In this document: positions 25,341-48,100 of the stretch, one piece after another
Position numbering within the stretch: position 1 is the first letter of the stretch
How the letters are laid out: each line of letters opens with the position of its first letter
Source: Candidatus Velthaea sp.
GTDB taxonomy: Bacteria > Vulcanimicrobiota > Vulcanimicrobiia > Vulcanimicrobiales > Vulcanimicrobiaceae
Direction of reading: 5' to 3'
Assembly (NCBI GenBank): GCA_050012475.1
Contig: JBEKHC010000022.1
Coordinates: forward strand, 1-55,521
DNA: 55,521 bases
Translations under genes and position numbers: made by a program
The notes under the pieces: generated by a model
The model's input: only the letters and a program-made list of their open reading frames with translations
Told to the model about the DNA's origin: nothing
Databases searched by the model: none

Positions 25341-28300
25341 TCAGAGAGCAGCTCGCTCCACAGATAGTAACGGCAAAGAGACCGCAGCTAGTCTGCCGGC
25401 TTCCGGCTGCGGCAAGCCACCGAGCTTGGCGGCCCATCCGCGCAGTGCGTGGTGCAAATGCGCTTCCAACCGTGCCTCGCTCTCGAAAGGGACGCCCGCG
25501 CGATTGAAGTGCAAATGCAGCAAGATGCCGAGAATGTGACCGGCCGGCCGATCGAGCGCACCAGCTGCGTCGAGCGCGGCCAAATCCGACACGGCACGCA
25601 GCTCGGCGGCGGTTGCGTCGGTACCGGTTTCTTCAAGCCACCCGCAGATGCGGCGCACGAAGCCGTAGTCGATCGCGCCGACGTTGCGCCGTCGCCGCGC
25701 GCCGGCCTCGAGCCACGGCGCCAGATCGAACGTCGCGAACCACGCGCGGAGCAGCGGCACGCTCGAACGCAGCGCCGTAACCGCAGACGGGTCGCCGCTG
25801 CGCCGGGCGAGCGCTTCGAGCGTGCGCGCGCTGTCGGCGCAAACGAACTGCTCGATCGGCTCGAGCGCGGCGTCGCCGCCGAATCGTTCCGGCTCCGGTC
25901 GATACGTGTCGAAGCCGTATCGCTCGAGCCGGGCGCTATGCAGCAGCGGTTCGAGAATCTCCATGACGCGCGCCACGATCGGCGCGCCGCTTCCGCCGGC
26001 GGCGTGCAGCCGCAAACGCAGATGGTGCTGCGGATCGCGGTAACGTACGAAAAACCAGCGGTCGACGGCGTCTCCGCAAGCGTCGACGATCGACGGGATG
26101 ACGTCGCGAACGAGCGCGTCGAGCTCGTTCGCACATGCGTACAGCTTGACGTACACCCAGGCGCTGGCCGGTCCCAGCCCGCGCACGGGCGCGCCACGCA
26201 ACCGCGCCGGAGGACGAGCGGAACTCTCCGGCAACGTGCTGCCAGCAAAGGTCGCGACGAATTCGTGCGTAACCGAAGCGCCATCGCGTTGCAGCCAAAG
26301 CTCGTCGAAGCTCGGCAGCATCTCCTCGAAACACAGGCGCTCGCCGAGCACTTTCGGCAGCTGATCCCACAGCAGTTCGCGCGCGACCGGCGAGTCGAGA
26401 TCGATGAGCAATTTAACGTCGCGCTCGACGAGATACACCCAACGCGGAAGCCGCCAGGTCGTGTGCCAGCGTGCAAGCGCCGTTTCCCGCTGCGCGAGGT
26501 CGCCGCTCAATTCTTCACGCGGAATGAGCCAGCGTGCGACGCCGAGCACGACGCGACCGTAGCGCAGCCGCGGCAGAAACGGCAGCGTTCCCGCCGCCCG
26601 TCCCCAATCGAAAGGTTGCGGCGTTCGCTTGCGCGCGTTGGCCAACTCGGCGAGAAAGCGCATGTGCGGCGGCGCGAAGTACCCGGTTTCGAGCAGATAG
26701 CTTTCGTCGATCTCGATCCGCCGGCCCAGCGACGTCGCGTAGGCGACGAACGCTCCGTCCTCGAACGCGATGAGAATGTCGGCTGGGCTGATGCGGGTTA
26801 CGCCGGCTGCAGGCCGCGTTGCCGCGTCGCCGATCGCGTAGCGGTGCACCGGGCGGCGTGCGATGATGTTGCCGCCGCGCAGCTCGAGCGGAATGTAGTC
26901 GAGATCGGCGACCACGGCATCCGGCGCGGCTTGAACGCAGCGTGCGTTCGCGGCCCGTTTCTCGAAGTCCGCACCCAGCATGCCGCCTAGCCGGACGGCT
27001 GATTTGGCGACGCCGTTGGAGTTCGCGCCGGCCGTGGGCACGATGAGATAGTCGCCGGCGTCGATCGCGGCGCGATCGCGTGCGCACAGGGTGAAGCCGA
27101 TCTCGCACGTCTGTCCGATGCCGCTTGCGCGCAGGCCGGGGAAAAGCCGGTCGAAGCCGCGATCGTCCAGCGCAACTTCCTGCGCTCCGTCGCGCAGCGC
27201 GCCCGCCGCGAGATCGGCCAGCACTGCTTCGCGCGCGGGCGAAGGCGATTCGCGGGGCCGCCCCGGCGTCAGCACGAAATCGTCGTGCACGAGCTGCAGC
27301 AGCGGGATCGCGCGGTCAAGGCTTTCGTAGCGGTCGATGAACGCATCGATATACGCCTCGACGCGCGTCGACTTGCCGTCGGCGAGCATGATCTTGGCCA
27401 GTGTCCGCGCATCGGCGACGACGTTCGCGCCCAAGCCGCCGCCAAACTCGCACGCTAAGTCGACGGCGAACGCGTTGCCGCCGATCGGACACCAGGCTTG
27501 AAGGGCGCGATCGACAGCGTCGATGCGCTGCGACGTGAGCTCAAGCGTGCCGCCCGACTCGAGCGCCTGCAGTTCGGCGCGCAGTTCGCCCAGCCGGTCG
27601 GCAGCGGGATGTTCTTCGAATAAGGCGAGCAGCGATGCGAACGCGTCGCCGGCCAGCGACGGTTGCACCGGGGCGAGCACGCCGGCGTCGAGCAAGGCGC
27701 GCACGAGTCCCAGCGCTCTCTCGGTGCTCGAACCAAAGCGCGCTGCGGCGCGTTCGACCAAATCGTCGACCCGAACGGGCTCGGCGGCCGCCGTTCGCAA
27801 CCACCGCACCGCGGCGTTTTGCCGAAGATGAACCGTATCGTACCGCCACACCGGCAGTTCGCCGTCGCCGCTCGTCCGGCTGATGCGCGTAGCGTCGAAG
27901 ACGTACAATTCGTCGCCCCGCTCGATCGCAAGATCGTTGGCGACGATGCGGGCGCCCCCGAAATGGCGTCGATCTCGCAGCAGCGCCGCGGCGGTTGCAG
28001 CCAGCCAACGCGCGTCCGGCCGCACCGCCGGGCGCGGCTCTTGCGTGGTGTCGACGGCGAAGTCGGTGTGTTCGCCTGCCGCGACAGCCCCGCTCGCCGC
28101 GAACAAACCGAACGGCGTGCAGCGGGTGGCCATCCGCACAACGTAGCCGAGCGCCCGCAAGGGAGCATGCTTGTTGCGCGGCCGGCCGCCGCCCGCCCAG
28201 GTCGTGAGCGCTGCCGCCAATGTCGGCGACGCCAGCCGGATGGCCGAGCGCAGTGCGACGTTCGTGTTCAAAAGTTCGCGTAGCGACTCGTACGGCGCGG

Positions 28301-28403
28301 GCGACTCGTAGAGCGCGCGCACGACGTTCGCCTCGAGCGACGGCACGCGGCCGACGATCGGGATGTCGTCGCGCGCGCCCCGCGCGCGGCCCGTGTCTTC
28401 CAT
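25341..28403 (-). CDS. lanB: Full-length LanB (glutamyl-tRNA-dependent) dehydratase with fused glutamylation and elimination domains
   Basis: YVVRMATRCTPFGLFA, RPD, PFDWG..LPFLPRLRYG, LPRWV; elimination domain WVYVKLY, WFFVRYRDPQHHLRLR, YRPEPERFGG, HLHFNR; 1020 aa. Confidence 0.92.
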   Translation of the reverse strand: MEDTGRARGARDDIPIVGRVPSLEANVVRALYESPAPYESLRELLNTNVALRSAIRLASPTLAAALTTWAGGGRPRNKHAPLRALGYVVRMATRCTPFGLFAASGAVAAGEHTDFAVDTTQEPRPAVRPDARWLAATAAALLRDRRHFGGARIVANDLAIERGDELYVFDATRISRTSGDGELPVWRYDTVHLRQNAAVRWLRTAAAEPVRVDDLVERAAARFGSSTERALGLVRALLDAGVLAPVQPSLAGDAFASLLALFEEHPAADRLGELRAELQALESGGTLELTSQRIDAVDRALQAWCPIGGNAFAVDLACEFGGGLGANVVADARTLAKIMLADGKSTRVEAYIDAFIDRYESLDRAIPLLQLVHDDFVLTPGRPRESPSPAREAVLADLAAGALRDGAQEVALDDRGFDRLFPGLRASGIGQTCEIGFTLCARDRAAIDAGDYLIVPTAGANSNGVAKSAVRLGGMLGADFEKRAANARCVQAAPDAVVADLDYIPLELRGGNIIARRPVHRYAIGDAATRPAAGVTRISPADILIAFEDGAFVAYATSLGRRIEIDESYLLETGYFAPPHMRFLAELANARKRTPQPFDWGRAAGTLPFLPRLRYGRVVLGVARWLIPREELSGDLAQRETALARWHTTWRLPRWVYLVERDVKLLIDLDSPVARELLWDQLPKVLGERLCFEEMLPSFDELWLQRDGASVTHEFVATFAGSTLPESSARPPARLRGAPVRGLGPASAWVYVKLYACANELDALVRDVIPSIVDACGDAVDRWFFVRYRDPQHHLRLRLHAAGGSGAPIVARVMEILEPLLHSARLERYGFDTYRPEPERFGGDAALEPIEQFVCADSARTLEALARRSGDPSAVTALRSSVPLLRAWFATFDLAPWLEAGARRRRNVGAIDYGFVRRICGWLEETGTDATAAELRAVSDLAALDAAGALDRPAGHILGILLHLHFNRAGVPFESEARLEAHLHHALRGWAAKLGGLPQPEAGRLAAVSLPLLSVERAAL

Positions 28404-28600
28404 GGCGGAGACGATACGATGTTGGACGGCGTGCGGTCCACCACCCGAACGAGGTTAGTCATCAGGTGAGAGCGGAGTCGCGACCGAGTAGTCGGGACAC
28501 TTTTGGGACGCCCGTCGCGCTACGCTCACGGGACGGCGTTCTCCCGCAGGCACATCCGCATCGGGACGGCGGCGGGGAGAACAAGCATGGGTGGACCAGC

Positions 28601-31285
28601 ATGAAAGAACCTTCGCACGTCCTTTTAGCCAGCGCTGCGCGCGAGTCACGCCGGAGTTCGATCCGCAGCGTGTGGTCCAACGATTCGCTGGCCGTCGCCC
28701 CGCTCGAGCGCCCGCGCGTCGTGGCGCGCATCGAGCGTGCCGCGCGTTACAAGATCGCCGTCATCCTGGCGCCGGCCGGCCATGGAAAAACCATCGCACT
28801 GCGCGGCTTCATCGCCCGGCAGAGGGCGCCGAAGCTGTGGCTCGACGCTTCGCGCTGTACCGGCCGCGACGGATTTATTGGCGCGTTCGGGCGCGCGCTC
28901 GAAGCCGCCGTTCCGCCCGACACGCTCGCGGCAAGCTTGCAGCGATGTCGCGATTCGCTCGACCCGGCCGCGGCGGCCGACCTGCTCGCCGGCTGCCTTC
29001 CGGCCGGTGAACTGCTCCTGGCGGTGGACGGCCTGACCTCGGCGGTCCTCGACGATCCGGCGGCGTGCGGCTTGCTATGCGAACTCATCGAACGCAGCGG
29101 CGAGCACGTGCGCTGGCTGTTGGCGGCGCGCTCGTCGGGATCGTTGCCGCTGGCCTCGTGGATGGCGTACGGTGCGCTCGAAGCCCCAGTCGATGCGGCG
29201 GATCTGGCGTTGAATGAGGACGAAGCCCATGCATTGGCGGCAACCGCGGCAGCCTGCACCCCCGACGTGGTCGACGACGTGTTCGCGCTCACCGGCGGCT
29301 GGGCGGCGCCGTTCGTGTTAGCGCTGCGCGCGGGCGCTCAGCCCGGCCAATTGTGCGATCTGGCCGGACGGCACCGCATGCTCTGCGACTACCTTAGCGA
29401 GCAAATCTTCAGCGGACTCGACGTGGCCGAACGGGCGTTTTGCTTGGCCACCTGCGTGTTGGAATCGATCGACTTCCCGGTGGTGATGCGGCTATGCACC
29501 GCCGACGCGCGCGATACCCTCGAGCGTTTGCGCGCGCGGCTGCTGCTGCTGCCCAACGACGCCGCTTCGGGCTTCGTCTATCATCCGCTGTTTCACGCGT
29601 TCCTGGGGCATCAGCTGCGTTTACTGGGCGAGGCCGCATTTCGGTCGACGCTCTTAGCGGCCGCCACCGCGCTCGAAGGCGCTGAACGCTACGCCGCGGC
29701 GCTCGACGGATTTTTGCGCGCGCAATCGGCCCGCGAAGTCGAGCGACTGCTGTCCGAACACGGATACGCGCTGCTCGAATGTGGCGAAACCGCCGGCGTG
29801 GCCGACGGCATCGCGTTTCTGCGCCGTCGTGGACACGGGGGTTCGCCGCCGCTCCTGGCTTTGCGCGGCAGTCTCGAGGCCGCTGCCGGCAACGGCACCT
29901 GGGCCATGACGCTTTTCGAGACCGCGCTGGCGCAAGCGCGCGACACGAACGAACGCAACCGGATCGCGAATTGGTACGCGCTCGAATTGTTCACCCGCAA
30001 CGATCCCGTCGGTGCCGCGGCGCTCGAACGCGTCGTTCCGTTGCTCGAGAACGCCCGAAGAGAAGCGGCGGCATCACCCGACAGCGAAGCGGCATTGGCC
30101 GGCGCGCTCGGGGTCGCTTACATCATGCTCGACCGCATGAGCGATGCATCGCTGTGCATCCGCGAAGCGTTGGCTTCGGCGAGCGCGCAGGACAACCCGC
30201 GGCTGCAGGCGCTGGTCTACCATCAAGCCGGTTTCTTTGCGTACGCGTGCGGCGACGCGCAGCGTGCGTCACGGTTGGCGGCGGCCGCTACGCGGTTGGC
30301 CGTCGAAACGCACAACGCGCGCTTAGCCGCACGCAGCAGCAGCGTGCGATTCAGCATTGCGCGTGGGCTCGAGGACGACCCGCAGGGCGCCTACGAGCAT
30401 CTCGTGGCGATGCGCGAGTTCGCGCAGACGGCGGGCGAGCGATACTTGCAGTGCGAGGCGCTGGCCGGGATGCTCGATATCGAGGCCGAACGCGGCGATG
30501 CGGAGCGCTTGCGCGAGACCGAGGCGCAGCTGGAGGCCGGTCACGAAGGGCTCGACGTTCAGACGACGGCGGTTCTCCCGGTAACCGCGCTGACCGCGGC
30601 CTGGAACGGCGACTTTCAACTGGCGCACGATCGCCTCGCTCGTTCTGATGCCGATCAGCCGACGCTCTTGCGCAGCGCGCTGCGCTCGGCGGAGATCGCA
30701 CTATATGCAGCGGCGGCCGGTCGACGCGAAGCGGCGCTCGACGCCGCCGCGAAAGCCGCGCACCTGGCGCGAACGACGAAGCTGCGCCATGCCGAAGATC
30801 GGCGGCGACAGGTGCGCACGCTGGCACTGTGCGCGATCACGTACGTTACGGTCGGCAGCACACCAACTGCCAACGGCATCTTGCTCGAGCTGGAACGGGC
30901 GCGCCGCGAGATGTCCTCGCGCACGCGAACGATCGTCGAGGCGGCGCGCGCGCTGTACCTGCGCGCAGAGATCGGCGCCGCGCAACCGGTTGCCGCGGCG
31001 CTGGCGCGGTTGGGTTCCGCCGGTTACGGCGGTTTGGCGCGCTTGCTCGAGGCGTTGCCGTCGGTGCGGCTCGAAGCGCCGTCGGCGATCGCTTTGCTGA
31101 CGCCGGCGGAGATCCAGGTCCTGCGCGTACTCGCGCGCGGCGGCAGCAGCACGAAAGCCGCGGTCGTTCTCCAGCGCAGCGTCAATACCGTCAACGTCCA
31201 CGTGAAGTCGATCATGCGCAAATTGCGCTGCGCGACGCGTTACGACGCGATCGCCATCGCGCGCGAGCACGGGTTGGTCGACTGA
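28601..31285 (+). CDS. MalT-like ATP-dependent LuxR-family transcriptional regulator
   Basis: Walker A APAGHGKT, TGGWAA, YLSEQIF, YHPLFHAFL and a C-terminal LuxR HTH LTPAEIQVLRVLARG..SVNTVNVHVKSIMRKL. Start codon approximate. Confidence 0.88.
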   Translation: MKEPSHVLLASAARESRRSSIRSVWSNDSLAVAPLERPRVVARIERAARYKIAVILAPAGHGKTIALRGFIARQRAPKLWLDASRCTGRDGFIGAFGRALEAAVPPDTLAASLQRCRDSLDPAAAADLLAGCLPAGELLLAVDGLTSAVLDDPAACGLLCELIERSGEHVRWLLAARSSGSLPLASWMAYGALEAPVDAADLALNEDEAHALAATAAACTPDVVDDVFALTGGWAAPFVLALRAGAQPGQLCDLAGRHRMLCDYLSEQIFSGLDVAERAFCLATCVLESIDFPVVMRLCTADARDTLERLRARLLLLPNDAASGFVYHPLFHAFLGHQLRLLGEAAFRSTLLAAATALEGAERYAAALDGFLRAQSAREVERLLSEHGYALLECGETAGVADGIAFLRRRGHGGSPPLLALRGSLEAAAGNGTWAMTLFETALAQARDTNERNRIANWYALELFTRNDPVGAAALERVVPLLENARREAAASPDSEAALAGALGVAYIMLDRMSDASLCIREALASASAQDNPRLQALVYHQAGFFAYACGDAQRASRLAAAATRLAVETHNARLAARSSSVRFSIARGLEDDPQGAYEHLVAMREFAQTAGERYLQCEALAGMLDIEAERGDAERLRETEAQLEAGHEGLDVQTTAVLPVTALTAAWNGDFQLAHDRLARSDADQPTLLRSALRSAEIALYAAAAGRREAALDAAAKAAHLARTTKLRHAEDRRRQVRTLALCAITYVTVGSTPTANGILLELERARREMSSRTRTIVEAARALYLRAEIGAAQPVAAALARLGSAGYGGLARLLEALPSVRLEAPSAIALLTPAEIQVLRVLARGGSSTKAAVVLQRSVNTVNVHVKSIMRKLRCATRYDAIAIAREHGLVD

Positions 31286-31489: not shown

Positions 31490-32167
31490 ATGCACATCGT
31501 TCGCAGCTTTGCAAGCTTGACGCTCGCAGCCATCGTCTTGGCGCTTCCGGCGACCGCGCCGGCGGCAGCCGACGCACCGCTGACGCTGCTACCCGATCGC
31601 CCCGGCGATCGGGCCGCGTACACGTTCCGCTTCGAGGGCCACTTTGGCGTCGGACGTCAGGACAAACTCGACGACGTCATTTCGATCGGCCAGAAGAGCG
31701 CCGGCGTCGTCGTGCTCGATGCGAAAAAGTGTAAACCGTTCGAGTTGGACACCACGGTCGACGAAAGCGGCTTGCTCAAGCAAGCCGATCCGCCGTCTGC
31801 GCTGGGCGACATCATCATCGACTACAACTCGATCGTCAAGCTCGCGCAGCACGCGCGGCGCGAGCCCGGTGCCGCCTGGGAGACGCAAATTCCGGTGCGT
31901 CTGTCGCCCGACACCTGGCAAGATTTGCCCGTAGCGGTCAAAGTGACCGGCGCTGCGAACGGCGAGCTCGCCATCGAAGGAAACGGACACCAAGAGACGA
32001 TGCTGTATTTCTCGGGCTTCACGTTTCCGGTCGACGTGACGGTGCACATGGCCGAGGCGTTCCGTGCCGACGGACATCTGGCCGATGCCCATCTGTCCGT
32101 CAACGAAGTCACCGCCGGCGGCAGCGGGCCGCCGATCTCATACGCTTGGCAGATGCGGGCGCAATGA
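31490..32167 (+). CDS. Secreted hypothetical protein A (paralogue of 39810-40478)
   Basis: Signal peptide MHIVRSFASLTLAAIVLALPATAPAAA; stop overlaps the next ATG; shares motifs with protein B. Confidence 0.8.
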   Translation: MHIVRSFASLTLAAIVLALPATAPAAADAPLTLLPDRPGDRAAYTFRFEGHFGVGRQDKLDDVISIGQKSAGVVVLDAKKCKPFELDTTVDESGLLKQADPPSALGDIIIDYNSIVKLAQHARREPGAAWETQIPVRLSPDTWQDLPVAVKVTGAANGELAIEGNGHQETMLYFSGFTFPVDVTVHMAEAFRADGHLADAHLSVNEVTAGGSGPPISYAWQMRAQ

Positions 32168-33138
32168 TGTCGATGACGCCCGCGCCCTATCTCAAACCGT
32201 GGTGGCGCATCACGTACGAAACGGCGCGCGTGACCTTTCAGTACGGCGACGATGCCGTCGTGTGCGAAGGCAAGAGCGCCGCGACGCTCTTGCCGCGGCT
32301 GATTCCGCTCCTGGACGGCCGGCACGCGTTCGAGACGATCGTCGCCGAACTGGGACCGCAAACCGAACCCTTCGTGCGCAAAACGGTCGACCTGTTCGCG
32401 TCGCGCGGTCTGCTGGCCGACGGAGCGCCGGTCCCGGCCGACGTTTCGCCGGCCGCGCGCGAAGCGGTCCACTTCTTGGCGGCCACGCAGCCGCGCGGAG
32501 GCGACATGCGCGCCGACGCGGGGCGTCTGGGCGGTTTGCGCGTCGTGACGGTCGGCGATTCATCCGTAGCGAGCGAAACCGCTCGCGCGCTCGCCACTTC
32601 CGGCGCGACCGTGCAGCGCTCGAACTGGGACGCGCCCGCGTCGCAATTGGCAACGTGTGACTTGGTCGTGATCGCGCCCGCGCCCGGCGAATTGCCGCGC
32701 CTGGGTGCCTGGAATGCGCGCGCGCTCGAAACACAGACGACGTGGTTAGGCGTTTTGCCGTTCGACGGCCGGTTCGCTGCCGTCGGGCCGCTCTACATTC
32801 CGGGTGAAACCGCGTGCTACGAATGTTTTCGGCATCGCCGCGCGGCCAACGTCAGCTATTCCACGCAGTGGTGGGCAATGCAGGACACGCCGGCCGCCTA
32901 TCCGTCGCCGCTGCCGATCGAAATGATGCTCGCTGGGCTTGCGTCGCTGGCCGTGCTGCGCTGGCATTTGCGGCGCGACCCTGGCTTGCCCGGTGCTTTT
33001 TCGGCGCTCGAATTCAACGGTGAGATCGTGCTCGGCACGCACGTCGTCTATCGCGTTCCGCGTTGTCCGGCGTGCGCAACCGTCGGTCGAGCGGCGCCGG
33101 TCCTGCCGTGGTTCGAGGCACCCGCGTGGAGCGCTTGA
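32164..33138 (+). CDS. TOMM/LAP E1-like (ocin-ThiF) leader-binding partner of YcaO, probable N-terminal RRE
   Basis: LIPLLDGRH N-terminal region, VGPLYIPGETACYECF and RVPRCPAC. Confidence 0.88.
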   Translation: MMSMTPAPYLKPWWRITYETARVTFQYGDDAVVCEGKSAATLLPRLIPLLDGRHAFETIVAELGPQTEPFVRKTVDLFASRGLLADGAPVPADVSPAAREAVHFLAATQPRGGDMRADAGRLGGLRVVTVGDSSVASETARALATSGATVQRSNWDAPASQLATCDLVVIAPAPGELPRLGAWNARALETQTTWLGVLPFDGRFAAVGPLYIPGETACYECFRHRRAANVSYSTQWWAMQDTPAAYPSPLPIEMMLAGLASLAVLRWHLRRDPGLPGAFSALEFNGEIVLGTHVVYRVPRCPACATVGRAAPVLPWFEAPAWSA

Positions 33139-34460
33139 TTCTGCGCGACGTCGCGGCGGCGCCGCTGACGCACACGATGCCGATGCTGCAGTCGCTGGCG
33201 TCGCCGCTGACGGGCATCATCCCATTCACGCAACAGTTGCTGCCGGTGACCGACGATGCGCGGCTCTTTCACGTGGCCTCCGTCACCTGCGACACCGAGG
33301 CGCTCATCGGTTCGGCGGCAAATCGCTATAACGGCGGGATCAACTTCACCTATGCCGGCGCGTTAGCCGCAGCGATCGGCGAAGGTCTCGAACGCTATGC
33401 CGGCGCGTATCTCGACGAGAGCCGGGTCCGCATCGCGTCGGCCGATGAGCTGGGCGCAGCGGCCGCGCCGGCCGCGTCGTTCGCGCTCTTTCATTCGCAC
33501 CAATACGCCCAACCCGCTTTCACCTACGCGCCGTTCACGCCCCAAACGCGCGTCCGCTGGACGCCCGCGTTCCGGCTGCCGGGCGGCGAGCCGGCCTTCG
33601 TGCCGACGCAACTGATTCATCTCGGTCGCCCTTTGCACGACGAAGCGCATCTGGGATATGCGACGAGCTCCGGTATGGCGTGCGCCGCGTCGTTCGAGGA
33701 AGCGATTCTGTCCGGGCTGTTCGAGCTGGTCGAACGCGACGCGTTCATGCTGACGTGGAACAATCGCCTGTCGCTGCCGCTGGTCGATTCCTCGGGCGAA
33801 GCCGATATCGTCGACGACGACCGGCGCTATTACCGTTCGACGGGCTTGCGGTATCATGCCGTCGATCTGAGCGTGTTCCACGCGATCCCGACGGCGCTGG
33901 GCGTCGTGCGCGACGACGCGGGTGAGATCGCTTTCGCCGTCGGCTGCGCGAGCGCGGCCACCATGCGCGACGCCGTCCGCAAAGCCTTGCGCGAAGCCTT
34001 TCAAACGCGAACGTTCGCGCGCCAGCTGCGCTCCGACGATCCGGACTGGGACAAGCCGGCCGACCGGATCGAGAGCTTCGAGGATCACGTGCTCTATCAT
34101 TCGCTGGCCCACAACGCACCGGCGGCGGCCTTCGTCGATCGTTCGCCGGCGCGCGTGCGCGTCGCCGAGGTCGCCGCACTTGGCGTCGATGGCGTCACCG
34201 CGCGCATCTTGGCCATCGTCGACCGGCTGGCACGAGCGGGAGTCGACACGTACGCGGTCGACACCACGCCGCCGGATTTGCGCGCCGCTGGGCTGCGCAC
34301 GGCCGCCGTCGTGGCGCCGCAGCTTTGCCGGCTCGACGTGCCGGTGCGCTTTCGCTATCTGGGCGGCGAGCGGCTCTACCGCGCGGCGCACGAGCGCGGA
34401 CTGCTGGCGCGCGTGCAGACCATCGACGATCTCAATTCTTTCCCGCATCCCTTCCCGTGA
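33126..34460 (+). CDS. ycaO: YcaO cyclodehydratase (azoline-forming type)
   Basis: GEGLERY, TSSGMACA..GLFELVERDA, KALREA and C-terminal PHPFP (PxPxP-type tail). Confidence 0.93.
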   Translation: MERLILRDVAAAPLTHTMPMLQSLASPLTGIIPFTQQLLPVTDDARLFHVASVTCDTEALIGSAANRYNGGINFTYAGALAAAIGEGLERYAGAYLDESRVRIASADELGAAAAPAASFALFHSHQYAQPAFTYAPFTPQTRVRWTPAFRLPGGEPAFVPTQLIHLGRPLHDEAHLGYATSSGMACAASFEEAILSGLFELVERDAFMLTWNNRLSLPLVDSSGEADIVDDDRRYYRSTGLRYHAVDLSVFHAIPTALGVVRDDAGEIAFAVGCASAATMRDAVRKALREAFQTRTFARQLRSDDPDWDKPADRIESFEDHVLYHSLAHNAPAAAFVDRSPARVRVAEVAALGVDGVTARILAIVDRLARAGVDTYAVDTTPPDLRAAGLRTAAVVAPQLCRLDVPVRFRYLGGERLYRAAHERGLLARVQTIDDLNSFPHPFP

Positions 34461-34473
34461 AAGTGCGTGCCTG

Positions 34474-35316
34474 ATGGATCCTTATCGTAACGGGTCGGCG
34501 ACCCTCAACGCGGCCTGGGTCGTGTACGGCACGCCGGGCGAGGTCTCGCCCGACGATCCGGCCGAGTCGTATCACGAAGCGTCAGCGCTCTACGCGACGC
34601 AACTGGCGCGGCAGCTGCCCGGCATCGCGTTTCTCGAGTCGAATCCGCAACTGCAGCTCACCGCGTCGCGCAGCACGAAGCGCCATCCGCACGTGCCGGC
34701 GATCGCCCTGCCGCCGTGCACGCTGCCGGACGTGTCGCTGGGCGACGTGCTCGCGCGGCGCCGGACGCGGCCGCATTTCGGCACCGCTGGGCCGTCGTTC
34801 GAGAAGCTGGCGCTGGTACTGCGCGCGGCCTACGGCGTGACCGGGAGCGCGAAGCTGCCCGGCGGCGGCGATCAGTCGTTTCGCGCCGCGCCCTCGGCCG
34901 GCGCGCTGTACCCGCTGGAGTTCTATGCGCTGGTCTTCGCCTGCGATGGTTTGAGCGCGGGCATCTATCACTACGATCCCCTGCGCGACGTGCTCGAGCG
35001 GCTCGCCGAGGGCGACCGGCGCGCGGCGTTCGCGCCGACCTTGCCGATGCGTGAACTGGGCGAACGGTGTGCCGTTGCGTTGGTCGTCAGCGCGATGTTT
35101 TGGCGCACGCGTTTTAAATACGGTCAACGCGGCTACCGGTTTGCGTTGCTCGAAGCCGGGCATGCCGCACAGAATGCGCTGCTGGCCGCCGAAGCGCTCG
35201 GACTCGCGACGGTTCCCGTCGGCGGCTTCTTCGATCGTCAATTGTCCGAACTGCTCGACATCGACGGCGTCAACGAAGCGCCGCTGTACGTGCTGTCGAT
35301 CGGAACGCGGCCATGA
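34474..35316 (+). CDS. SagB/McbC-type FMN-dependent azoline dehydrogenase
   Basis: RAAPSAGALYPLE, GIYHYDP, KYGQRGYRF (Lys-Tyr motif), LEAGHAAQN, GGFFD. Confidence 0.92.
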   Translation: MDPYRNGSATLNAAWVVYGTPGEVSPDDPAESYHEASALYATQLARQLPGIAFLESNPQLQLTASRSTKRHPHVPAIALPPCTLPDVSLGDVLARRRTRPHFGTAGPSFEKLALVLRAAYGVTGSAKLPGGGDQSFRAAPSAGALYPLEFYALVFACDGLSAGIYHYDPLRDVLERLAEGDRRAAFAPTLPMRELGERCAVALVVSAMFWRTRFKYGQRGYRFALLEAGHAAQNALLAAEALGLATVPVGGFFDRQLSELLDIDGVNEAPLYVLSIGTRP

Positions 35317-35849
35317 GCGCGGCGGCAGCGCCGCCCAGCGCGCGAACGATCGTCACCTATTCGCTGGTGCAGGCGGGGATCGCGTTCTCGCTCGTCGCCG
35401 GCGGCGCGGTGCCGCTGCAATGCGACGCCTCGCGCGACCTGACCGGCATCGCGCTCGGCACCGCCGCCGGGATCATCTTGTTCTACCTGCTCGCCTACGA
35501 TGGCGCAGCCCGACCGCTGCGTGCCAAACGTTTCGCGATCGTCAAACTCGCCGCGCTGTTGGCGGTGGTCTCGGTGGCCGAAGAGATCGTCTGGCGCGGT
35601 TACGCGCTCGCGGCGCTGCGGGCAACGACCGGACCGCTGGCCGCGCTCGCCGCGACGTCGTTGGGCTTCGCCGCGGCGCACGCGACGACGCAAGGCTGGA
35701 CGGGCATTCGCACGCACTTGGTCACCGGAGCGGTGATCGGATTGGCGTTCATCCTCACGCGCAGTTTAGCGGCCGCCGTCGCCACCCACCTGTCGTACAA
35801 TTTGATGTTCGTGCGCGCGCTCGCGCCGCAAGGGAGATTCGAGCTATGA
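35313..35849 (+). CDS. CPBP (CAAX/Abi) intramembrane metalloprotease
   Basis: EEIVWRG, FAAAH and HLSYN motifs; hydrophobic; ATGA overlap. Confidence 0.88.
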   Translation: MSAAAAPPSARTIVTYSLVQAGIAFSLVAGGAVPLQCDASRDLTGIALGTAAGIILFYLLAYDGAARPLRAKRFAIVKLAALLAVVSVAEEIVWRGYALAALRATTGPLAALAATSLGFAAAHATTQGWTGIRTHLVTGAVIGLAFILTRSLAAAVATHLSYNLMFVRALAPQGRFEL

Positions 35850-36763
35850 TTGCATCGCGGCCGGCGCCGCTGTCACTGACCGTCGTGGGCCCGCGGCCGC
35901 TCGCGGAATTGAGCGGCGTTCACAAAGCCTATGGCGAGCGCGCGGCGTTGCGGGGCTTCGATCTGAAGCTGTACCCCGGTGAGATCGTCGTGCTGCTCGG
36001 GCCCAACGGTGCGGGAAAGAGCACCGCGATCAATGTGCTGAACGGCTTGCGCGAAGCCGACGCGGGCGACGTGCGCCTCTTTGGCGGCAACCCGCGAGCC
36101 GCGCGCACGCGGCGCGAACTGGGCGCCACGCCGCAGCAGCTCGACTATCCGGCGATGCTGCGCGTTCGCGAAATCGTCGAGCTGGTGCGCGCGCACTACG
36201 CGCAGCCGCTCCCGGCCGCCGAATTGCTCGAATCGTTCGGGCTCACGGACTTGGCCGGCCGGTGGGGCTCCGCGCTCAGCGGCGGTGAACGGCGCCGTTT
36301 GGCCGTGGCGCTGGCTTTCGCCGGCCGGCCGCGTTTGGCGCTGCTCGACGAACCGACGACCGGGCTCGACGTCGAGGCGCGCCGATTCGTTTGGCAGGCC
36401 GTGCGCGACTATGCCGGCGCCGGCGGATCGGTTTTGCTCACCACGCACTATTTGGAAGAGGCGGACGCGCTCGCGACGCGCGTGGTGGTCATCAACCACG
36501 GACGCGCGATCTTCAGCGGATCGGTTACCGACATCAAGGCTCGCATCGGTTGGAAACGCCTGACCGTTCGCGCGCCGGTCGAGCTCCCCATCGCGGGCAT
36601 CACCGCGGCCGACTGTGACGGTAACCGCTGCGTGCTGCGCACCAAGAACGTCGACGTCTTGGTGGCCGCGCTGCTCGAACGCGGCGTGCATTTCGACGAC
36701 ATCGAGATCGGCCCGGTTTCTTTGGAAGAAGCATTCCTCGACCTCACGGAGCGCGTGTCATGA
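35846..36763 (+). CDS. ABC exporter ATP-binding protein
   Basis: GPNGAGKST, LSGGERRR, LLDEPTTGLD, TTHYLEEA. Confidence 0.93.
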   Translation: MIASRPAPLSLTVVGPRPLAELSGVHKAYGERAALRGFDLKLYPGEIVVLLGPNGAGKSTAINVLNGLREADAGDVRLFGGNPRAARTRRELGATPQQLDYPAMLRVREIVELVRAHYAQPLPAAELLESFGLTDLAGRWGSALSGGERRRLAVALAFAGRPRLALLDEPTTGLDVEARRFVWQAVRDYAGAGGSVLLTTHYLEEADALATRVVVINHGRAIFSGSVTDIKARIGWKRLTVRAPVELPIAGITAADCDGNRCVLRTKNVDVLVAALLERGVHFDDIEIGPVSLEEAFLDLTERVS

Positions 36764-37503
36764 ACGCTGCAGCGCTGTTCGGCAAACACGTTTGGATCGA
36801 CACGGTCGAGCTGATCCGTTTGCCGATGTACTCGGTGTCGACCATGGTCTTCCCGACGCTGTTGTATTTGCTGTTCGGCCTGCCGTACGGCCATTCGGAG
36901 ACGGCATCGCGCTTGATCATGAGCTCGTTTTGCGCATACGCGGTCATCGGGGTCACCTTATTTCAATTCGGCGTGGGCATCGCCACCGATCGCAATTCGC
37001 CCTGGGAACAGTATCTGCGGGTGCTGCCCGTCAACGCGCTCACGCGCCTGGGCGCGCAAATCACTGCGGCGCTCTTCTTTGCCGCCGCATCGGTCGGTAC
37101 GGTCATCGCCGCCGCCGCGATCTTCAGTCATGCCGCGCCGAATGCGGAGTTGCTGGTCCGGCTCGTCCCCGTGCTGCTGCTCGGCAGCATCCCGTTCGCG
37201 CTGCTCGGGATCAGCATCGGGTATTGGGCCGGGCGGCGCAGCGCGTTGCCGATTGCCAACCTCATCTATTTACCGATGGCGCTCGGCGGCGGCCTGTGGA
37301 TGCCGCCCGAAGCATTGCCGCGCGCGATCGCGCTGCTGTCGCCGTATTTGCCCTCGCGCCATTACGGCGAGATTGCCTGGGCGGTTGCTCGCGGTGTGAC
37401 AACGCCGGCGATCTCGTGGCTTTGGCTGCTCGGCTACGCGCTGGTCTTCGGTTGCACCGCGGTTCTGGGATACCGGCGGGATGAGAGCCGCAACTATCGC
37501 TGA
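36760..37503 (+). CDS. ABC-2 type exporter permease
   Basis: About six hydrophobic segments; FQFGVGIATDR, LGGGLWMPP, SPYLPS. Confidence 0.9.
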   Translation: MNAAALFGKHVWIDTVELIRLPMYSVSTMVFPTLLYLLFGLPYGHSETASRLIMSSFCAYAVIGVTLFQFGVGIATDRNSPWEQYLRVLPVNALTRLGAQITAALFFAAASVGTVIAAAAIFSHAAPNAELLVRLVPVLLLGSIPFALLGISIGYWAGRRSALPIANLIYLPMALGGGLWMPPEALPRAIALLSPYLPSRHYGEIAWAVARGVTTPAISWLWLLGYALVFGCTAVLGYRRDESRNYR

Positions 37504-39796
37504 CGTGCGGCGGGTGTTGCCGGCGGTCGGCTTGGTGCTGGCGTTGGCGCTGCCGTTCGGCGCCGCCGGCGCGTCGGCGGCCGAACCGCTCGACGCACGC
37601 GTGCTCGTCGTCGATGCGGCCGGCATGCCCGCTCCGGGTGTCGACGTGTTCGCGCGCGAAAAGGGCACGCTCGTTTCGCTCGGACGCACCGATGCAAGCG
37701 GCGTGCTTACCGTGCACGTCGCGTCGGGCGAGTCGCTCGTGGCGCGCATCGGCAGCCGAACGTCGGCGCCGGTTGCGCTCACCGCTCGTCAAGCACGCAT
37801 CGTTTTGCCGGTCGCGAAGATCGGGACGGTGCGCGCGCACAACGACCGCGATGGCGAGCCGACGGTCACCAGCGAGAGTCCGAGCGCGATCGTTTTCGAC
37901 GACCTTGCATTGGCGCGCACGCTGGTGCCCAACTACCGTTCGCGCGCCGAAGGCGGCTCGGGGCATCAAATGCTCAACGGCGTTCCCCTCGACCTCCCCA
38001 GCGGTCCGCGGACCGACGCGTCCGATGAACCGGGCGTGCCCAGCGATCTCATCGAGTCGTTCAACGCGACGCAGGCCGACGACGGAACCGTGACGCCGAA
38101 CTACCATTTGCTCGCGCCGACGCCGCATCTCGCGATGCGCTTCGGCAGCGGTCTGAGCGCGTTCGACGGATCGTTGTGGAAAGCGGGAGTTTCGGGAACG
38201 GTGCACGGCTTGGGCTTCGCGGTTGCGGCGGCGACCGGCGGCGACGACGGTCCGCTTGCCGGCGCTACGCTCGTCGATGCCAGCGGCGCCGGCTACGATC
38301 ATTCCACGCATGCGCGTCACACCGACGTCTCATTCTCGTTCAGCCACGGCGTCGGATCGACCCAAATCAATGCCGCCGGCTTCAGCTCCCGGCAGCGCGG
38401 CGACGACATTGCTTTGAGCCTGCCGGGGACGCTGCTCGACGGCATCGGTCCGGGCAACGTCACCACTAAAACGTCCTCGTTCGAGTACGTCATCGCGATG
38501 CAGACGCACGGCCGCGATTCCTACCATCTGCTCGATGCGCGCTTTGCGGGCGGCAGTGCCGATGACGCGCCCGCGGCACTGGTGGACGGCGTGTCGGCCG
38601 GCTATACATCGGGCTATCGTTATTTTGGGAATTACGACGAGTTTGCGTTCACCCGCGCGTTCGGCCCCGCGTCGCTGACGCTCAAATCCACGTTCACCCA
38701 AACGGCGACGACGGGCTACGTTGCGACACCTTCGTTCGCCGCACAAGTGCCGGCGCATAATGGTCTAGCGACGCTGGGGCTCGATTACGAGCGTTCTACG
38801 GGATCCCACGGCTACGGTTTCGCGCTGGACGATGCGCAGCGCTCGGGTTCGTTCGCGGGCACCGACCTCGAAGCGCGCGCGCACGTCAAGACGATGCTCG
38901 CCGGGACGGCTCTGCAGCTTTCCGCTTCGCGCGCGCAAACGCAAGTGCAAGAAGCCTACAGCGCCGGTGCTTACGAGTTCGGCGCGCCATCGGCGGCGAC
39001 GATCACTTGCAGCCCGCCCTCGGCGACGGTCGTCGGTCCGGCCGGCGCGCTGGGAAGCCATCCGACGGCCGACACGCTGGACCTGCATCTGCGACGGCGG
39101 TTGGCGAACGAGGCGACGTTGAGCGCCGGCGGATTCGTGTCCGCCGGCCGCGACGGCCTGGTGTTCCCCGCCTCCGCACTGGGCGCCACGCTCGATCCCG
39201 CCTACCGCGCGCAGGTCGCCTCCGATGTCGCGCTGTTGTGCCCCGGGCGCACGCTCGGCGCCGCCGACTTATTCGTCCAGCGCTACGAAAGCGTTCCGCG
39301 CCTATCGGGGCGCGAATGGTTCGTCGATGCGACGTTGCCGCTGGGCGCCTTGCGCGCCGAAGCGACGTACGAAACGTATAGCTTGACCGCGCCGCAACTG
39401 CCCGCCGATCTCGCCGGCATCCCGAGCACGCTGGTGGCGGGCGCGCAAGTGCCGGGCGTTCCGCTCCATCGCGCGAACCTGCTGCTCTCGTACCGGCGGC
39501 TGCGCTTCGTCGCTGCGGCCGCGCTGCAATACACTTCAGACAACAACGTCGACGCCTTGCCCGGTCATGTCACCGTCGCCGCCGGTTTGCAACTTCCGGC
39601 GGGGCCCGGCGTCGTCGCGTTCGCCGCGCAAAATCTGTTCGGCGCATACAGCGGAACGTACGTTTCGCCGATGTTTGCCGTCCCGCTCGCGACGTCGAGC
39701 GGCGTGCTGCCGACGTTGGCGATTCCGCTTCGTCCGGCGTGGTCGCTGCGTTACACCCTCCCGCTCGGACCTTCATCGCTCGCCACGCGTCAGTAA
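37481..39796 (+). CDS. TonB-dependent receptor-like outer-membrane protein
   Basis: Signal peptide; N-terminal VVDAAGMPAPGVDV..TDASG (carboxypeptidase-regulatory-like); beta-strand patterning; GAQVPGVPLHRANL, NLFGAY and terminal WSLRYTL strand. No C-terminal Phe. Confidence 0.55.
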   Translation: MRAATIADVRRVLPAVGLVLALALPFGAAGASAAEPLDARVLVVDAAGMPAPGVDVFAREKGTLVSLGRTDASGVLTVHVASGESLVARIGSRTSAPVALTARQARIVLPVAKIGTVRAHNDRDGEPTVTSESPSAIVFDDLALARTLVPNYRSRAEGGSGHQMLNGVPLDLPSGPRTDASDEPGVPSDLIESFNATQADDGTVTPNYHLLAPTPHLAMRFGSGLSAFDGSLWKAGVSGTVHGLGFAVAAATGGDDGPLAGATLVDASGAGYDHSTHARHTDVSFSFSHGVGSTQINAAGFSSRQRGDDIALSLPGTLLDGIGPGNVTTKTSSFEYVIAMQTHGRDSYHLLDARFAGGSADDAPAALVDGVSAGYTSGYRYFGNYDEFAFTRAFGPASLTLKSTFTQTATTGYVATPSFAAQVPAHNGLATLGLDYERSTGSHGYGFALDDAQRSGSFAGTDLEARAHVKTMLAGTALQLSASRAQTQVQEAYSAGAYEFGAPSAATITCSPPSATVVGPAGALGSHPTADTLDLHLRRRLANEATLSAGGFVSAGRDGLVFPASALGATLDPAYRAQVASDVALLCPGRTLGAADLFVQRYESVPRLSGREWFVDATLPLGALRAEATYETYSLTAPQLPADLAGIPSTLVAGAQVPGVPLHRANLLLSYRRLRFVAAAALQYTSDNNVDALPGHVTVAAGLQLPAGPGVVAFAAQNLFGAYSGTYVSPMFAVPLATSSGVLPTLAIPLRPAWSLRYTLPLGPSSLATRQ

Positions 39797-39809
39797 GGAT
39801 TGGTCGAAA

Positions 39810-40478
39810 ATGTCGTTGTGCCGTGTTTCATCGTTCTTGGTCGCTGTGTTCGCGCCGTTGGTGCTCGCTGCGGCCGGCCCAAATGCGCTCATTCTCGGTC
39901 CCACGAGTGAGGGGGCCGCGCAATACCACTTATCGTTCGACGGTCATCTATGGAATGGCGCGCACAAAGTGTACGAGCATCAGATCTCGTTGCGGCCGGC
40001 CAGCGGCGCGGCCGAGCTGCAAGCGACCGTCGACGAACAAGAGTCCGGCAAACGCTTCGACCTGACCGTCAAACGCGACCCAGACGGGGTGCTCGTGTCG
40101 CCCGATCCGCACGCACAATTCAGCGCCTACAACGCGGTTGCGCGCGTGGCCGCTGCGGCTCCGGCGAAGCTCGCGGCGGGAACGGCATGGGATGCGCAAG
40201 TACCGGTCGACATCGGCGACGCGCTCTCCGTGAGCGTGCCGGTTCATGCCTGGGTCGTGAATATCGACGGCGGCCGAACCACCATCCAGGGTACGGGTTC
40301 GCTCGAGACCACCGTCACCTACAGCGGCTTCACCGTGCCGATCGATCTGTCGATCCGCTTGGCGTCGGCGTTCGCTGACGGCACGTTCGTCCGGGCCGAC
40401 TCGGCGGCCAAGGAAGTCATCCACGCCGGTCCGCAGATGCAAACGCTTGATTGGACCTGGTCGCTGACGCGCACGTGA
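39810..40478 (+). CDS. Secreted hypothetical protein B (paralogue of 31490-32167)
   Basis: Signal-like N-terminus; shares motifs with protein A (FxGH, AWxxQxPV, ETxxxxSGFTxPxD). Confidence 0.8.
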   Translation: MSLCRVSSFLVAVFAPLVLAAAGPNALILGPTSEGAAQYHLSFDGHLWNGAHKVYEHQISLRPASGAAELQATVDEQESGKRFDLTVKRDPDGVLVSPDPHAQFSAYNAVARVAAAAPAKLAAGTAWDAQVPVDIGDALSVSVPVHAWVVNIDGGRTTIQGTGSLETTVTYSGFTVPIDLSIRLASAFADGTFVRADSAAKEVIHAGPQMQTLDWTWSLTRT

Positions 40479-42163: not shown

Positions 42164-42190
42164 TTTGGGGGCCGGTTCGGCATGCCGGCG

Positions 42191-42241
42191 AAGCAGCGTC
42201 GGCGGGTATCGCACCGGAGCGATCGCCCGCCGCCGCTGTTT
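42191..42241. terminator. Long GC-rich stem-loop between the convergent PQQ-DH and precursor genes
   Basis: AAGCAGCG-T-CGGCGGG-T-ATCGC / ACCGGA loop / GCGAT-CG-CCCGCCG-C-CGCTGTTT. Confidence 0.6.
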
Positions 42242-42247
42242 GCGTGT

Positions 42248-42406
42248 TTAGAAAACGCTGTGGCAGCAGCAGCAGGATGAACTGCTGCAGCAGCTGCTCG
42301 CAGCGCGGCCGCGCGTTTGGGGTTCCGAGCTCATGACGGTGACGACGAGATCGTCGAAATCGTCGACGAATTCGGGCGTGATCGTATCGGTGACTTGTTC
42401 GCTCAC
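42248..42406 (-). CDS. RiPP precursor peptide, 52 aa: MSEQVTDTITPEFVDDFDDLVVTVMSSEPQTRGRAASSCCSSSSCCCCHSVF
   Basis: AGAAAGG RBS 7 nt before GTG, acidic leader, Ser/Cys-rich C-terminus and TAA stop. Adjacent to the YcaO/SagB/LanB cluster and below the ORF-track size cutoff. Confidence 0.92.
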   Translation of the reverse strand: MSEQVTDTITPEFVDDFDDLVVTVMSSEPQTRGRAASSCCSSSSCCCCHSVF

Positions 42407-42984
42407 GGTGGTGCCTTTCTGTAACGGCCGTCGAGTGACGGGGATGGTGCACGCCCGCGAGCAGGAGGCCGCACGACGGACGCACCTTGAGACTACGGCA
42501 GCCGGCGAGGCCGTGTCTCATATCCGACTTTGGGTAGGCGCCGGGTGAACCGCGTGGTGAGACGCAATCGTTTGTCGCGCCGTCAAAGCTGGGCTCCGTT
42601 GCGAAAGCAGCTTTTCATCCGCTCCCTAACGTACCGGTTCTCGTCGAAATGCTCGCGTCACAAAGCGCCGATCCGAGAAGCGGTTAGTAGCGAGAAGCGT
42701 CTAAGCGGCAGGTCCGGTCGATGCTCGGATGTGCGTGGGGCGGAACGGCTCCCGGCCGCGAGCGACCGTCCGGTCCGACCGTCGGTGCAGCGGGCGGCAT
42801 CAACGACTTATCTAACTTCGCGCGCTGGCTCGCGCGCGCTACGGGTTCGGCACCCAGCAAGTTTCGCTGCGCAGAGATAGGATCTCTAGTCCTTTTGAAT
42901 TGCCGAGCGCGAGTACGGCCTGCGATGGAATCGAACTGCAGGCGGCTACAACCGACGAGAACGATCAGGCGGGATGATTGGCGA

Positions 42985-47325: not shown

Positions 47326-48096
47326 ATGCGAGCCGTAGCTGAGTCCCCGCGGGTGGGTTTGTTCGTCACCTGTATCGTGGACGCGATGAGGCCTCGCATC
47401 GGGTTCGCCGCGATCAGCCTGCTCGAAGATGCCGGCTGCCGGGTCGAGGTTCCGAGCGCCCAAACCTGCTGCGGTCAGCCCGCCCTCAACAGCGGCGATC
47501 TTCAAACGGTGACCGCACTCGCGCGCCGCTTCATCGAGGCATTCGAAGTCTACGACTATGTCGTCGCCCCGTCCGGCTCATGCGCCGGAACGATTCGAGA
47601 ATTCTACGCGAAAATGCTGGCCGAAGATGAACGCTGGGCATCTCGCGCACGCGCGCTGAGCGCGAAGACATACGAGATCATGAGTTTTCTCGTGGACGTG
47701 CTCAACTATTTGCCCAGCGGTGTTACGCTCGCGGGCACCGCGACGTACCATGACAGCTGCCACGGTTTGCGCGAATTGGGCGTGTTCGCGCAGCCCCGAG
47801 CGCTCTTGGGTGCGGTCGACGGCCTGGAGTTGCGGGAACTCGAAGCCAGCGAGATTTGCTGCGGTTTTGGCGGAGCGTTCTGCGTCAAGTATCCTGGGAT
47901 CTCGAACGCCATTGTCGAGGAAAAGGCGGCGTTTATCGAAAAGACGCAAGCCGATCTCCTGCTTGCCGGCGACTTAGGCTGCCTGATGAACATGGCTGGG
48001 AAGCTGCACCGTCGCGGATCGCGCGTTCGAGCGTTTCACGCCATCGAGGTTCTCGCCGGCCTGGCGAGCGGCCCCGCAATCGGCGAAGAGGAGTAA
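47326..48096 (+). CDS. lutA: Lactate utilisation protein A (CCG Fe-S protein)
   Basis: LFVTCIVD, QTCCGQPALNSG, PSGSC, YHDSCH, CCGFGG.F, DLGCLMN. Confidence 0.92.
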   Translation: MRAVAESPRVGLFVTCIVDAMRPRIGFAAISLLEDAGCRVEVPSAQTCCGQPALNSGDLQTVTALARRFIEAFEVYDYVVAPSGSCAGTIREFYAKMLAEDERWASRARALSAKTYEIMSFLVDVLNYLPSGVTLAGTATYHDSCHGLRELGVFAQPRALLGAVDGLELRELEASEICCGFGGAFCVKYPGISNAIVEEKAAFIEKTQADLLLAGDLGCLMNMAGKLHRRGSRVRAFHAIEVLAGLASGPAIGEEE

Positions 48097-48100
48097 AGCC

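Follow-up and report, generated by a model that had tools for sequence, protein, structure and literature searches.

Several described peptide systems bear on the locus presented here. According to Cox et al. 2015, cytolysin clusters combine a discrete cyclodehydratase, a dehydrogenase, an ABC transporter and a CaaX-like protease, and their precursors are set apart by a Gly followed by at least ten contiguous heterocyclisable residues. PMC10676384 and PMC4603692 describe a split LanB for the thiopeptide and goadsporin pathways, together with a fused cyclodehydratase for goadsporin, and PMC10676384 also describes the dehydrazoles (carnazolamide), hypermodified peptides that carry both azoles and Ser dehydration and originate from a Cys-rich C-terminus. 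The present analysis concerns a 55,521-nucleotide stretch of DNA from Candidatus Velthaea sp. (contig JBEKHC010000022.1, positions 1 to 55,521; hereafter the window), and more precisely a 52-residue open reading frame (ORF) at 42248-42406 on its minus strand. This ORF very probably encodes a sagA-like precursor of a linear azol(in)e-containing peptide (LAP) served by a streptolysin S-like set of enzymes. The precursor gene and its immediate signals are as follows.

42248..42406, minus strand: probable sagA-like precursor gene, 52 amino acids (aa); leader 1-36, predicted core SSCCSSSSCCCCHSVF
42414..42420, minus strand: Shine-Dalgarno-like AGAAAGG, 7 nt before the precursor GTG
42194..42238, minus strand: stable, terminator-like hairpin with no U tract, 10 nt past the precursor stop

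Translation of the frame yields MSEQVTDTITPEFVDDFDDLVVTVMSSEPQTRGRAASSCCSSSSCCCCHSVF and agrees with the gene model of the original prediction, which had been made from the letters alone: 52 codons, an AGAAAGG ribosome-binding site and a GTG start codon, the first ATG, GTG or TTG past the upstream stop. The closest homologues have AAAGGA or AAGGA at equal spacing to the start. The composition is likewise as claimed, with an acidic leader (eight Asp/Glu against two Arg) and a 16-residue tail that contains seven Ser and six Cys, including a contiguous Ser/Cys run of 12. The gene had been called unannotated, which is incorrect; the identical 52-aa protein already exists in public records, from an NCBI source and from JGI on five contigs. 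The third member of its 90% cluster has a single change in the core, SSCCSSSC for SSCCSSSS (core SSCCSSSCCCCCHSVF), and an intact leader. The G+C content at the three codon positions (0.49/0.53/0.75) follows the coding pattern seen in neighbouring genes. The downstream hairpin separates the precursor gene from a convergent gene for a pyrroloquinoline quinone (PQQ)-dependent dehydrogenase; the fold of 42160-42260 on the minus strand reaches -44.2 kcal/mol (z -2.95) and was matched in 1 of 200 shuffles. The window has no Rfam match and no tRNA gene. Such a Cys-dense frame could also arise by chance in G+C-rich, GCA/GCT-repeat-like DNA, with no peptide made. Among the 47,036 small ORFs (25-130 aa) of this genome, whose G+C content is 64%, 21 contain at least six Cys per 12-residue window; chance frames of this kind are therefore not rare, and composition alone proves nothing. 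The distance of the gene from the enzymes and its opposite strand also speak for a chance frame, and it is conservation that places the ORF beyond chance. As a separate observation, a 29-aa ORF with ten consecutive Cys, MRSAPPCCASKSRCCCCCCCCCCALRASW, lies at 12204-12293 on the plus strand of contig C124 of genome G000 and is possibly a chance trinucleotide-repeat frame.

The conservation was established through the genes for YcaO proteins and for their SagC-like E1-type partners. With an alignment of YcaO, 10 loci were obtained from species-representative genomes and a further 24 from metagenomes; three more regions were taken from genomes of the phylum. YcaO homologues number 650 at E<=1e-20, and at E<=1e-40 they occur in 13 of the 401 sampled genomes of the phylum; the 41 nearest genomes have no close YcaO, the only matches being in G017 (33%) and G014 (31%). 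A search with the single SagC-like protein gave 77 pattern matches, none of which was confirmed. Two metagenome loci, L034 (YcaO 62% identical) and L035 (71%), are uninformative on precursors because both begin within the YcaO gene. The closest homologue of the window peptide is a 60-aa ORF, MEKNMTEISTASDLVSELDSLVVVTMSSVTTGRGKAASSCCCSSSCCCCSSGGSNQSLSA, with the core SSCCCSSSCCCC, at 8777-8959 of locus L008 (48% identity over 44 aa, E 4e-6). This locus comes from an Eremiobacteraeota metagenome-assembled genome (MAG) and its YcaO is 62% identical to that of the window; its 60-aa ORF sits between the first secreted-protein gene and the SagC gene. L008 retains the full gene order of the window: LanB, regulator, barrel protein, SagC, YcaO, SagB and CPBP, followed by ABC, ABC-2, receptor-like protein, barrel protein and PQQ-dehydrogenase.

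Altogether, 16 small ORFs from 14 loci can be aligned, each preceded by a Shine-Dalgarno-like sequence. They have in common the leader motif (E/D)(L/F)(L/D)(D/E)L(T/V)(A/V)..(K/R)G, followed by about ten residues and a Cys-rich tail. Of the 26 loci with both a SagC homologue and upstream DNA, 20 contain a family precursor: 14 gave the 16 training peptides, and six (L016, L032, L036, L037, L039 and L052) were added by the profile. The peptide had been proposed as the precursor of a ribosomally produced and post-translationally modified peptide (RiPP) made by a YcaO system, with a search for a conserved small ORF near homologous clusters as the check; that search has thus turned up a precursor family with a common leader motif beside homologous YcaO genes. 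The window ORF, itself one of the training sequences, scores E 3.9e-16 with the family profile, and the second-best ORF genome-wide E 0.12. An Ala|Ser-Ser junction is conserved in the five closest members (window, L008, L031, L048 and L033) and is consistent with the previously suggested cleavage after GRAA, a site that stays putative.

In a collection of 5.8 billion proteins, a search with the single peptide returned only its own cluster, whereas the alignment found 478 clusters at E<=0.001; the family therefore becomes visible only via genomic context and then via a profile. Among the 120 clusters listed, all source names read 'hypothetical protein' save one 'streptolysin S family bacteriocin protoxin' (JGI). 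The common form of the family is about 43 aa long (MF.ELT.ELLDLTA...FA.VIDCCSCSCCGC...), and the sources of the clusters include Actinomycetes, Gaiellaceae, Armatimonadota and Eremiobacteraeota MAGs as well as soil and peat metagenomes. No NCBIfam model reaches its cut-off for the 16 family peptides, literature searches found neither a description of this precursor family nor its leader motif in this context, and Table S2 of Cox et al. 2015 contains no 'LLDLT' or 'DCCSC' precursor. This is a large precursor family, uncharacterised and unnamed so far. Leader and core are conserved in the syntenic L008, family members extend to hundreds of clusters, conservation includes the ribosome-binding site, independent assemblies with differing flanks carry the identical sequence, and the modelled complex described below passes its controls; a chance frame is accordingly extremely improbable. 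The precursor gene is real and conserved.

Some loci have features of their own. In L010, L015, L016 and L032, two to three precursor genes stand in tandem and their cores differ; in L016 the reading of one copy runs on into the next, as though the frame were disrupted. In L033 (G218:C1:400400-420300) the whole cluster has decayed, the YcaO, SagC, SagB, ABC, receptor-like and LanB genes each being in at least two tblastn pieces, yet a precursor-like ORF with the core SSTCTSSTTCKVSLL persists. A second, unrelated type of YcaO cluster (31-32% identity) is found in the same phylum at L024, L025 and L027 (genomes G198, G386 and G141), with 120-130-aa precursors ending in seven to eight Cys, e.g. 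...GCCCCCCCKEV...

The enzymes and the exporter that would act on the precursor are encoded in one direction.

32146..33138, plus strand: SagC-like E1-type YcaO partner with an N-terminal leader-binding RiPP recognition element (RRE); TIGR03882, 47.3 bits (cut-off 36.9)
33063..34460, plus strand: YcaO cyclodehydratase, SagD family; PF02624, E 5.6e-65; TIGR03604, 276.7 bits (cut-off 219)
34471..35316, plus strand: SagB-type flavin mononucleotide (FMN) dehydrogenase (azoline to azole); TIGR03605, 146 bits (cut-off 78); PF00881
35313..35849, plus strand: CPBP/Rce1-like (CaaX-type, SagE-like) membrane protease, 178 aa; PF02517, E 1.3e-15, 57.8 bits (cut-off 22.4)
35843..36763, plus strand: ABC transporter ATPase, DrrA-like; PF00005; conserved in every locus extending so far
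36760..37503, plus strand: ABC-2 permease; PF01061; conserved

Together with the precursor, these six genes constitute the core common to all loci. The SagC-like profile matches the E1-like and RRE parts of TruD, LynD, MusD and MccB, as well as the stand-alone RRE protein PbtF. Its family has four invariant Cys (224, 227, 307 and 310) arranged as two CxxC pairs, which we take to be the structural zinc site of E1-like partners. The true start of the YcaO gene is probably about 60 nt later than given, because its homologues are about 445 aa long; the family ends in an invariant P-H-P-F, and such a Pro-rich C-terminus is presumably typical of azoline-forming YcaOs. The likeness of the window YcaO to SagD was drawn through family models. 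The SagB start was inferred with tblastn alignments among the basis. The CPBP gene, absent from the original prediction and found with PF02517, had initially been overlooked because a longer spurious frame (35051-36763) covers it. By tblastn (E<=1e-3) it is present in 28 loci at positions between SagB and ABC, some of these loci being duplicate stretches, and in nearly all related loci it lies between the SagB and ABC ATPase genes. Its product is a candidate leader peptidase or immunity protein.

A YcaO with an E1-like leader-binding partner and a short precursor with a Cys/Ser/Thr-rich core, conserved beside the enzymes, are two of the features that characterize LAPs, also termed thiazole/oxazole-modified microcins (TOMM), and the window has both; it also contains the full content of a streptolysin S-like cytolysin cluster. 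In common with streptolysin S-like systems of the sagA-I type are the discrete C protein and YcaO D protein, SagB, the CaaX-like/CPBP protease, the ABC exporter, and a short precursor whose heterocyclisable residues form a long contiguous run (12 in the window). There are also differences. The window precursor obtains 17.4 bits on the streptolysin S model TIGR03602 (cut-off 35), by its Cys tract only; its run of 12 follows G-R-A-A, with Ala-Ala rather than the cytolysin Gly directly before it and a Gly three residues away; the leader motif is another one; and its host, a diderm from the environment, belongs to a candidate phylum. Beyond the streptolysin S-like set, the window adds a LanB, a receptor-like outer-membrane protein, barrel proteins and a PQQ-dehydrogenase.

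The original prediction had named the 32146-33138 protein as the leader binder, and modelling of the complex supports this. With a SagC-like alignment of 22 and a precursor alignment of 16, the model scored 0.58, 0.69 and 0.69 (median 0.69), against 0.00 for three controls. Among solved complexes, 116 of 157 attain the mark used for such scores, as do 2 of 215 mismatched pairs; these counts hold only roughly here, where our own alignments were used. The runs have at least 69% of their contacts in common, and the predicted local distance difference test (pLDDT) of the partner is at least 61. In the model the tightest contacts join leader residues 20-25 (LVVTVM, within the family motif) to residues 37-42 of the SagC-like protein, with further contacts to helices 70-87; the contacted region is the RRE region that matches PbtF. 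The model thus supports leader-RRE binding, as a likeness and not as a proof.

Compared with the other loci, the position of the precursor gene is unusual. In all 19 other loci with a family precursor (19/19), the gene immediately precedes SagC on the same strand. The window is the sole exception: its precursor gene is found 9.1 kb downstream, on the opposite strand and past the PQQ-dehydrogenase gene, where it keeps its own ribosome-binding site and terminator-like hairpin. The secreted-protein and SagC genes of the window overlap at 32146-32167, and the ancestral slot is therefore empty. In this genome the precursor gene has left its place just upstream of the SagC-like gene. An independent DNA assembly from another study (X3) contains a 1556-nt contig corresponding to 41385-42940, without any difference within the precursor ORF; it spans the dehydrogenase gene, the precursor and upstream DNA, so the displaced position is not an artefact of the MAG.

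The metatranscriptome library X20 contains a 217-nt contig identical to 42248-42464 (0 differences), i.e. the ORF and 58 nt upstream. It is only a hint of expression; such contigs are strandless and DNA may be present in libraries of this kind. The flanks of the precursor are without cover in X20, a lack that carries no information. Other X20 pieces (41375-41423, with 2-4 differences per ~40 nt) look like a conserved dehydrogenase motif from other organisms.

Taken together, these genes suggest the following scheme for a streptolysin S-like LAP. The leader segment D19-L-V-V-T-V-M25 would bind as a beta-strand to the N-terminal winged-helix RRE of the SagC-like protein. YcaO, with ATP, would then cyclodehydrate the six Cys and probably some of the Ser of SSCCSSSSCCCCHSVF to azolines, which SagB would oxidise to azoles. 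The remaining Ser could be converted to dehydroalanine by a LanB, and the leader would be removed near the conserved Ala|Ser-Ser junction by the CPBP protease or by another peptidase. The ABC pump would export the product, and a TonB-receptor-like barrel and two secreted barrel proteins may help it cross the outer membrane.

The LanB and a regulator are encoded upstream of the core genes.

25341..28403, minus strand: full-length LanB dehydratase (glutamylation and elimination domains), 1020 aa; PF04738, E 2e-109; PF14028, E 1.4e-36
28220..31285, plus strand: large LuxR/MalT-type regulator (STAND ATPase and GerE helix-turn-helix); PF00196, MalT-like match

The best solved relative of this LanB is 5ehk, a 1115-aa lantibiotic dehydratase. 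The true start of the regulator probably lies beyond the overlap with LanB, and the regulator gene is conserved in L008, L014 and L033. LanB is found in L008, in L048 (after the dehydrogenase, on the other strand), in L033 (broken) and in L014 (a fragment at the contig end). All four LanB loci with a known precursor (4/4) have Ala|Ser-Ser cores, but the cores of L031, L032 and the L036 group are Ser-rich too and no LanB was found in the DNA searched there, so that a tie between LanB and Ser-rich cores is only suggestive. In the literature searched, no paper pairs a full-length LanB with YcaO. We consider that there is about an even chance that this enzyme acts on the window peptide.

The presence of a LanB raises the question of a thiopeptide, to which the original prediction had likened the precursor alongside LAPs; two dehydroalanines, e.g. 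Ser1 and a later Ser, would then be joined by [4+2] cycloaddition into a pyridine macrocycle. Several features do point that way: the core opens with Ser-Ser after Ala, thiopeptide-annotated precursors from Bacillus and Lysinibacillus (Table S2, Cox et al. 2015) likewise show ELLDL and an Ala|Ser-Ser junction, the RRE region resembles PbtF, an RRE protein of thiopeptides (E 7e-7), and the C-terminal domain of LanB matches TIGR03891, 'thiopeptide-type bacteriocin biosynthesis protein'. However, a whole-genome search (93.8% complete) found a single Lant_dehydr_C (PF14028) domain, inside LanB, and no separate pyridine synthase. The window LanB is of full length, whereas PMC10676384 and PMC4603692 describe that of thiopeptides as split, and the other operon genes (discrete C and D, SagB, CaaX-like protease and ABC) form the cytolysin-type set of Cox et al. 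2015. A thiopeptide is thus very unlikely; of the proposed resemblance, the LAP part stands and so does the likeness of the leader to thiopeptide-annotated precursors, but not membership of the thiopeptide class.

A lanthipeptide-like product, in which dehydrated Ser and Cys thiols would form thioether rings while YcaO modifies some residues or another substrate, would agree with the full-length class-I-type dehydratase and with a core made almost entirely of Ser and Cys. Nevertheless, the window contains no LanC, the only LANC_like domain of the genome lying on another contig (C10) in a 1093-aa frame; moreover, the precursor family is tied to SagC, YcaO and SagB at every locus, and most loci are without LanB. 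This product is decidedly unlikely. Since the genome has only one Lant_dehydr_C domain and the surroundings of the cluster lack a LanC, the system falls outside the definitions of both thiopeptides and class I lanthipeptides.

For the preferred reading of a LAP that may also be dehydrated, the goadsporin-type LAPs with dehydroalanines are the nearest chemical analogy. In common with goadsporin- and coryneazolisin-type LAPs are YcaO, a dehydrogenase, a LanB-type dehydratase and the lack of a [4+2] enzyme, and the predicted product is likewise linear, with azoles and dehydroalanines and without a macrocycle. Unlike goadsporin as described in those papers, the window has an undivided LanB of 1020 aa and separate C and D proteins. 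The dehydrazoles differ by a DUF4135/LanM-type dehydratase and a long nitrile-hydratase-like leader, where the window has a LanB and a 36-aa leader. The leader motif, the Ala|Ser-Ser junction, the PbtF-like RRE and the LanB chemistry are what the window has in common with thiopeptides, and the unsplit LanB and the failure to find a pyridine synthase genome-wide are what separates it from them.

Several observations weigh against a LAP precursor. The chemistry, from azoles and dehydroalanines to the cleavage site, is so far a prediction. The complex model may pass through its likeness to solved leader-RRE complexes, e.g. LynD 4v1t. The precursor gene lies on the opposite strand, 7.8 kb from the end of the YcaO gene, unlike in the 19 other loci, and co-regulation with the enzymes is therefore unproven. 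The RNA-library contig X20 gives no strand and such libraries can contain DNA, no sigma-70-like promoter site was found in 41900-42900, and in an alignment of five upstream regions nothing was conserved except the ribosome-binding site. Among the 26 loci, the profile gave no precursor in five (L046, L050, L051, L054 and L056), and the precursor of L033 is marginal (E 0.64) and was picked out by eye. Finally, no LanB was found in the Ser-rich-core loci L031 (whole 41-kb contig), L032, and L036, L037, L039 and L052 (short contigs); the link between LanB and the peptide therefore rests on co-location in five loci.

The remaining genes of the region encode exported proteins.

31490..32167, plus strand: secreted beta-barrel protein, paralogue 1, no Pfam family; signal-peptide-like N-terminus
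37481..39796, plus strand: TonB-dependent-receptor-like outer-membrane protein, 771 aa; signal peptide
39807..40478, plus strand: secreted beta-barrel protein, paralogue 2; model (pLDDT 88) with an 11-strand barrel and one helix
40451..42163, plus strand: periplasmic PQQ-dependent alcohol dehydrogenase; TIGR03075, 561 bits (cut-off 480); signal peptide

The two secreted proteins are paralogous; for the first, a DUF6263/DUF3108-like fold is a lead only. The best structural matches to the model of the second are with N-terminal barrels of lipovitellin/ApoB (Z 11.6) and with barrels of autotransporters (Z 10.4), matches that are not decisive between a soluble carrier and a membrane barrel; Foldseek gave no match with this model at E<=0.001. 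The language-model look-alikes of the 771-aa protein are clusters of TonB-dependent receptors (score 0.97, a lead only). Of 401 genomes of the phylum, nine have a homologue of it at E<=1e-40, and in eight of the nine it lies beside YcaO-SagB genes, two of these eight clusters being of a distant YcaO type (26% identity). Each receptor-like homologue has a homologue of the secreted barrel protein as its partner (including L075, L076 and L077). In G095 the neighbour of the pair is an ABC ATPase, and the 19.9 kb searched gave no YcaO.

The best solved relatives of the PQQ-dehydrogenase are the quinoprotein ethanol dehydrogenases 6zcv and 6zcw. Its gene stands between the exporter genes and the precursor, with which it is convergent. 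It adjoins the cluster in the window, L008, L031, L033 and L048, and is bracketed by LanB or the precursor in three gene orders. The idea of an empty quinoprotein was rejected, the genome having pqqC and pqqE (elsewhere) and four PQQ-dehydrogenase paralogues, all with W-D-Y-D; we take the D-Y-D motif to be a lanthanide-type signature. It is conceivable, if doubtful, that the azole-peptide pathway of this phylum is built into a trans-envelope, periplasm-facing system and that the peptide has a role other than, or beyond, that of an antibiotic. One possibility is a secreted metal-binding compound, retaken via the receptor-like protein and serving a metal-dependent quinoprotein; or the PQQ enzyme could oxidise the peptide in the periplasm (Ser CH2OH to aldehyde), which, if true, would add a kind of tailoring that is not known from RiPPs. 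Further downstream, at 47326-50166, are ordinary lactate-utilisation-type genes (CCG domain, LUD/4Fe-4S and LUD), unrelated to the precursor.

For an LAP family that has so far gone uncharacterised, the locus supplies a validated precursor together with a motif for leader recognition and the complete set of enzymes. It also represents a RiPP pathway from a candidate phylum without cultured producers, the host being an uncultured soil bacterium. Mining tools restricted to the neighbourhood of YcaO would overlook the window precursor. An all-Ser/Cys 12-mer encoded with both YcaO and a full-length LanB is a test case in which the two enzymes compete for Ser, and the receptor-like and barrel proteins suggest a route for the peptide across the diderm envelope.

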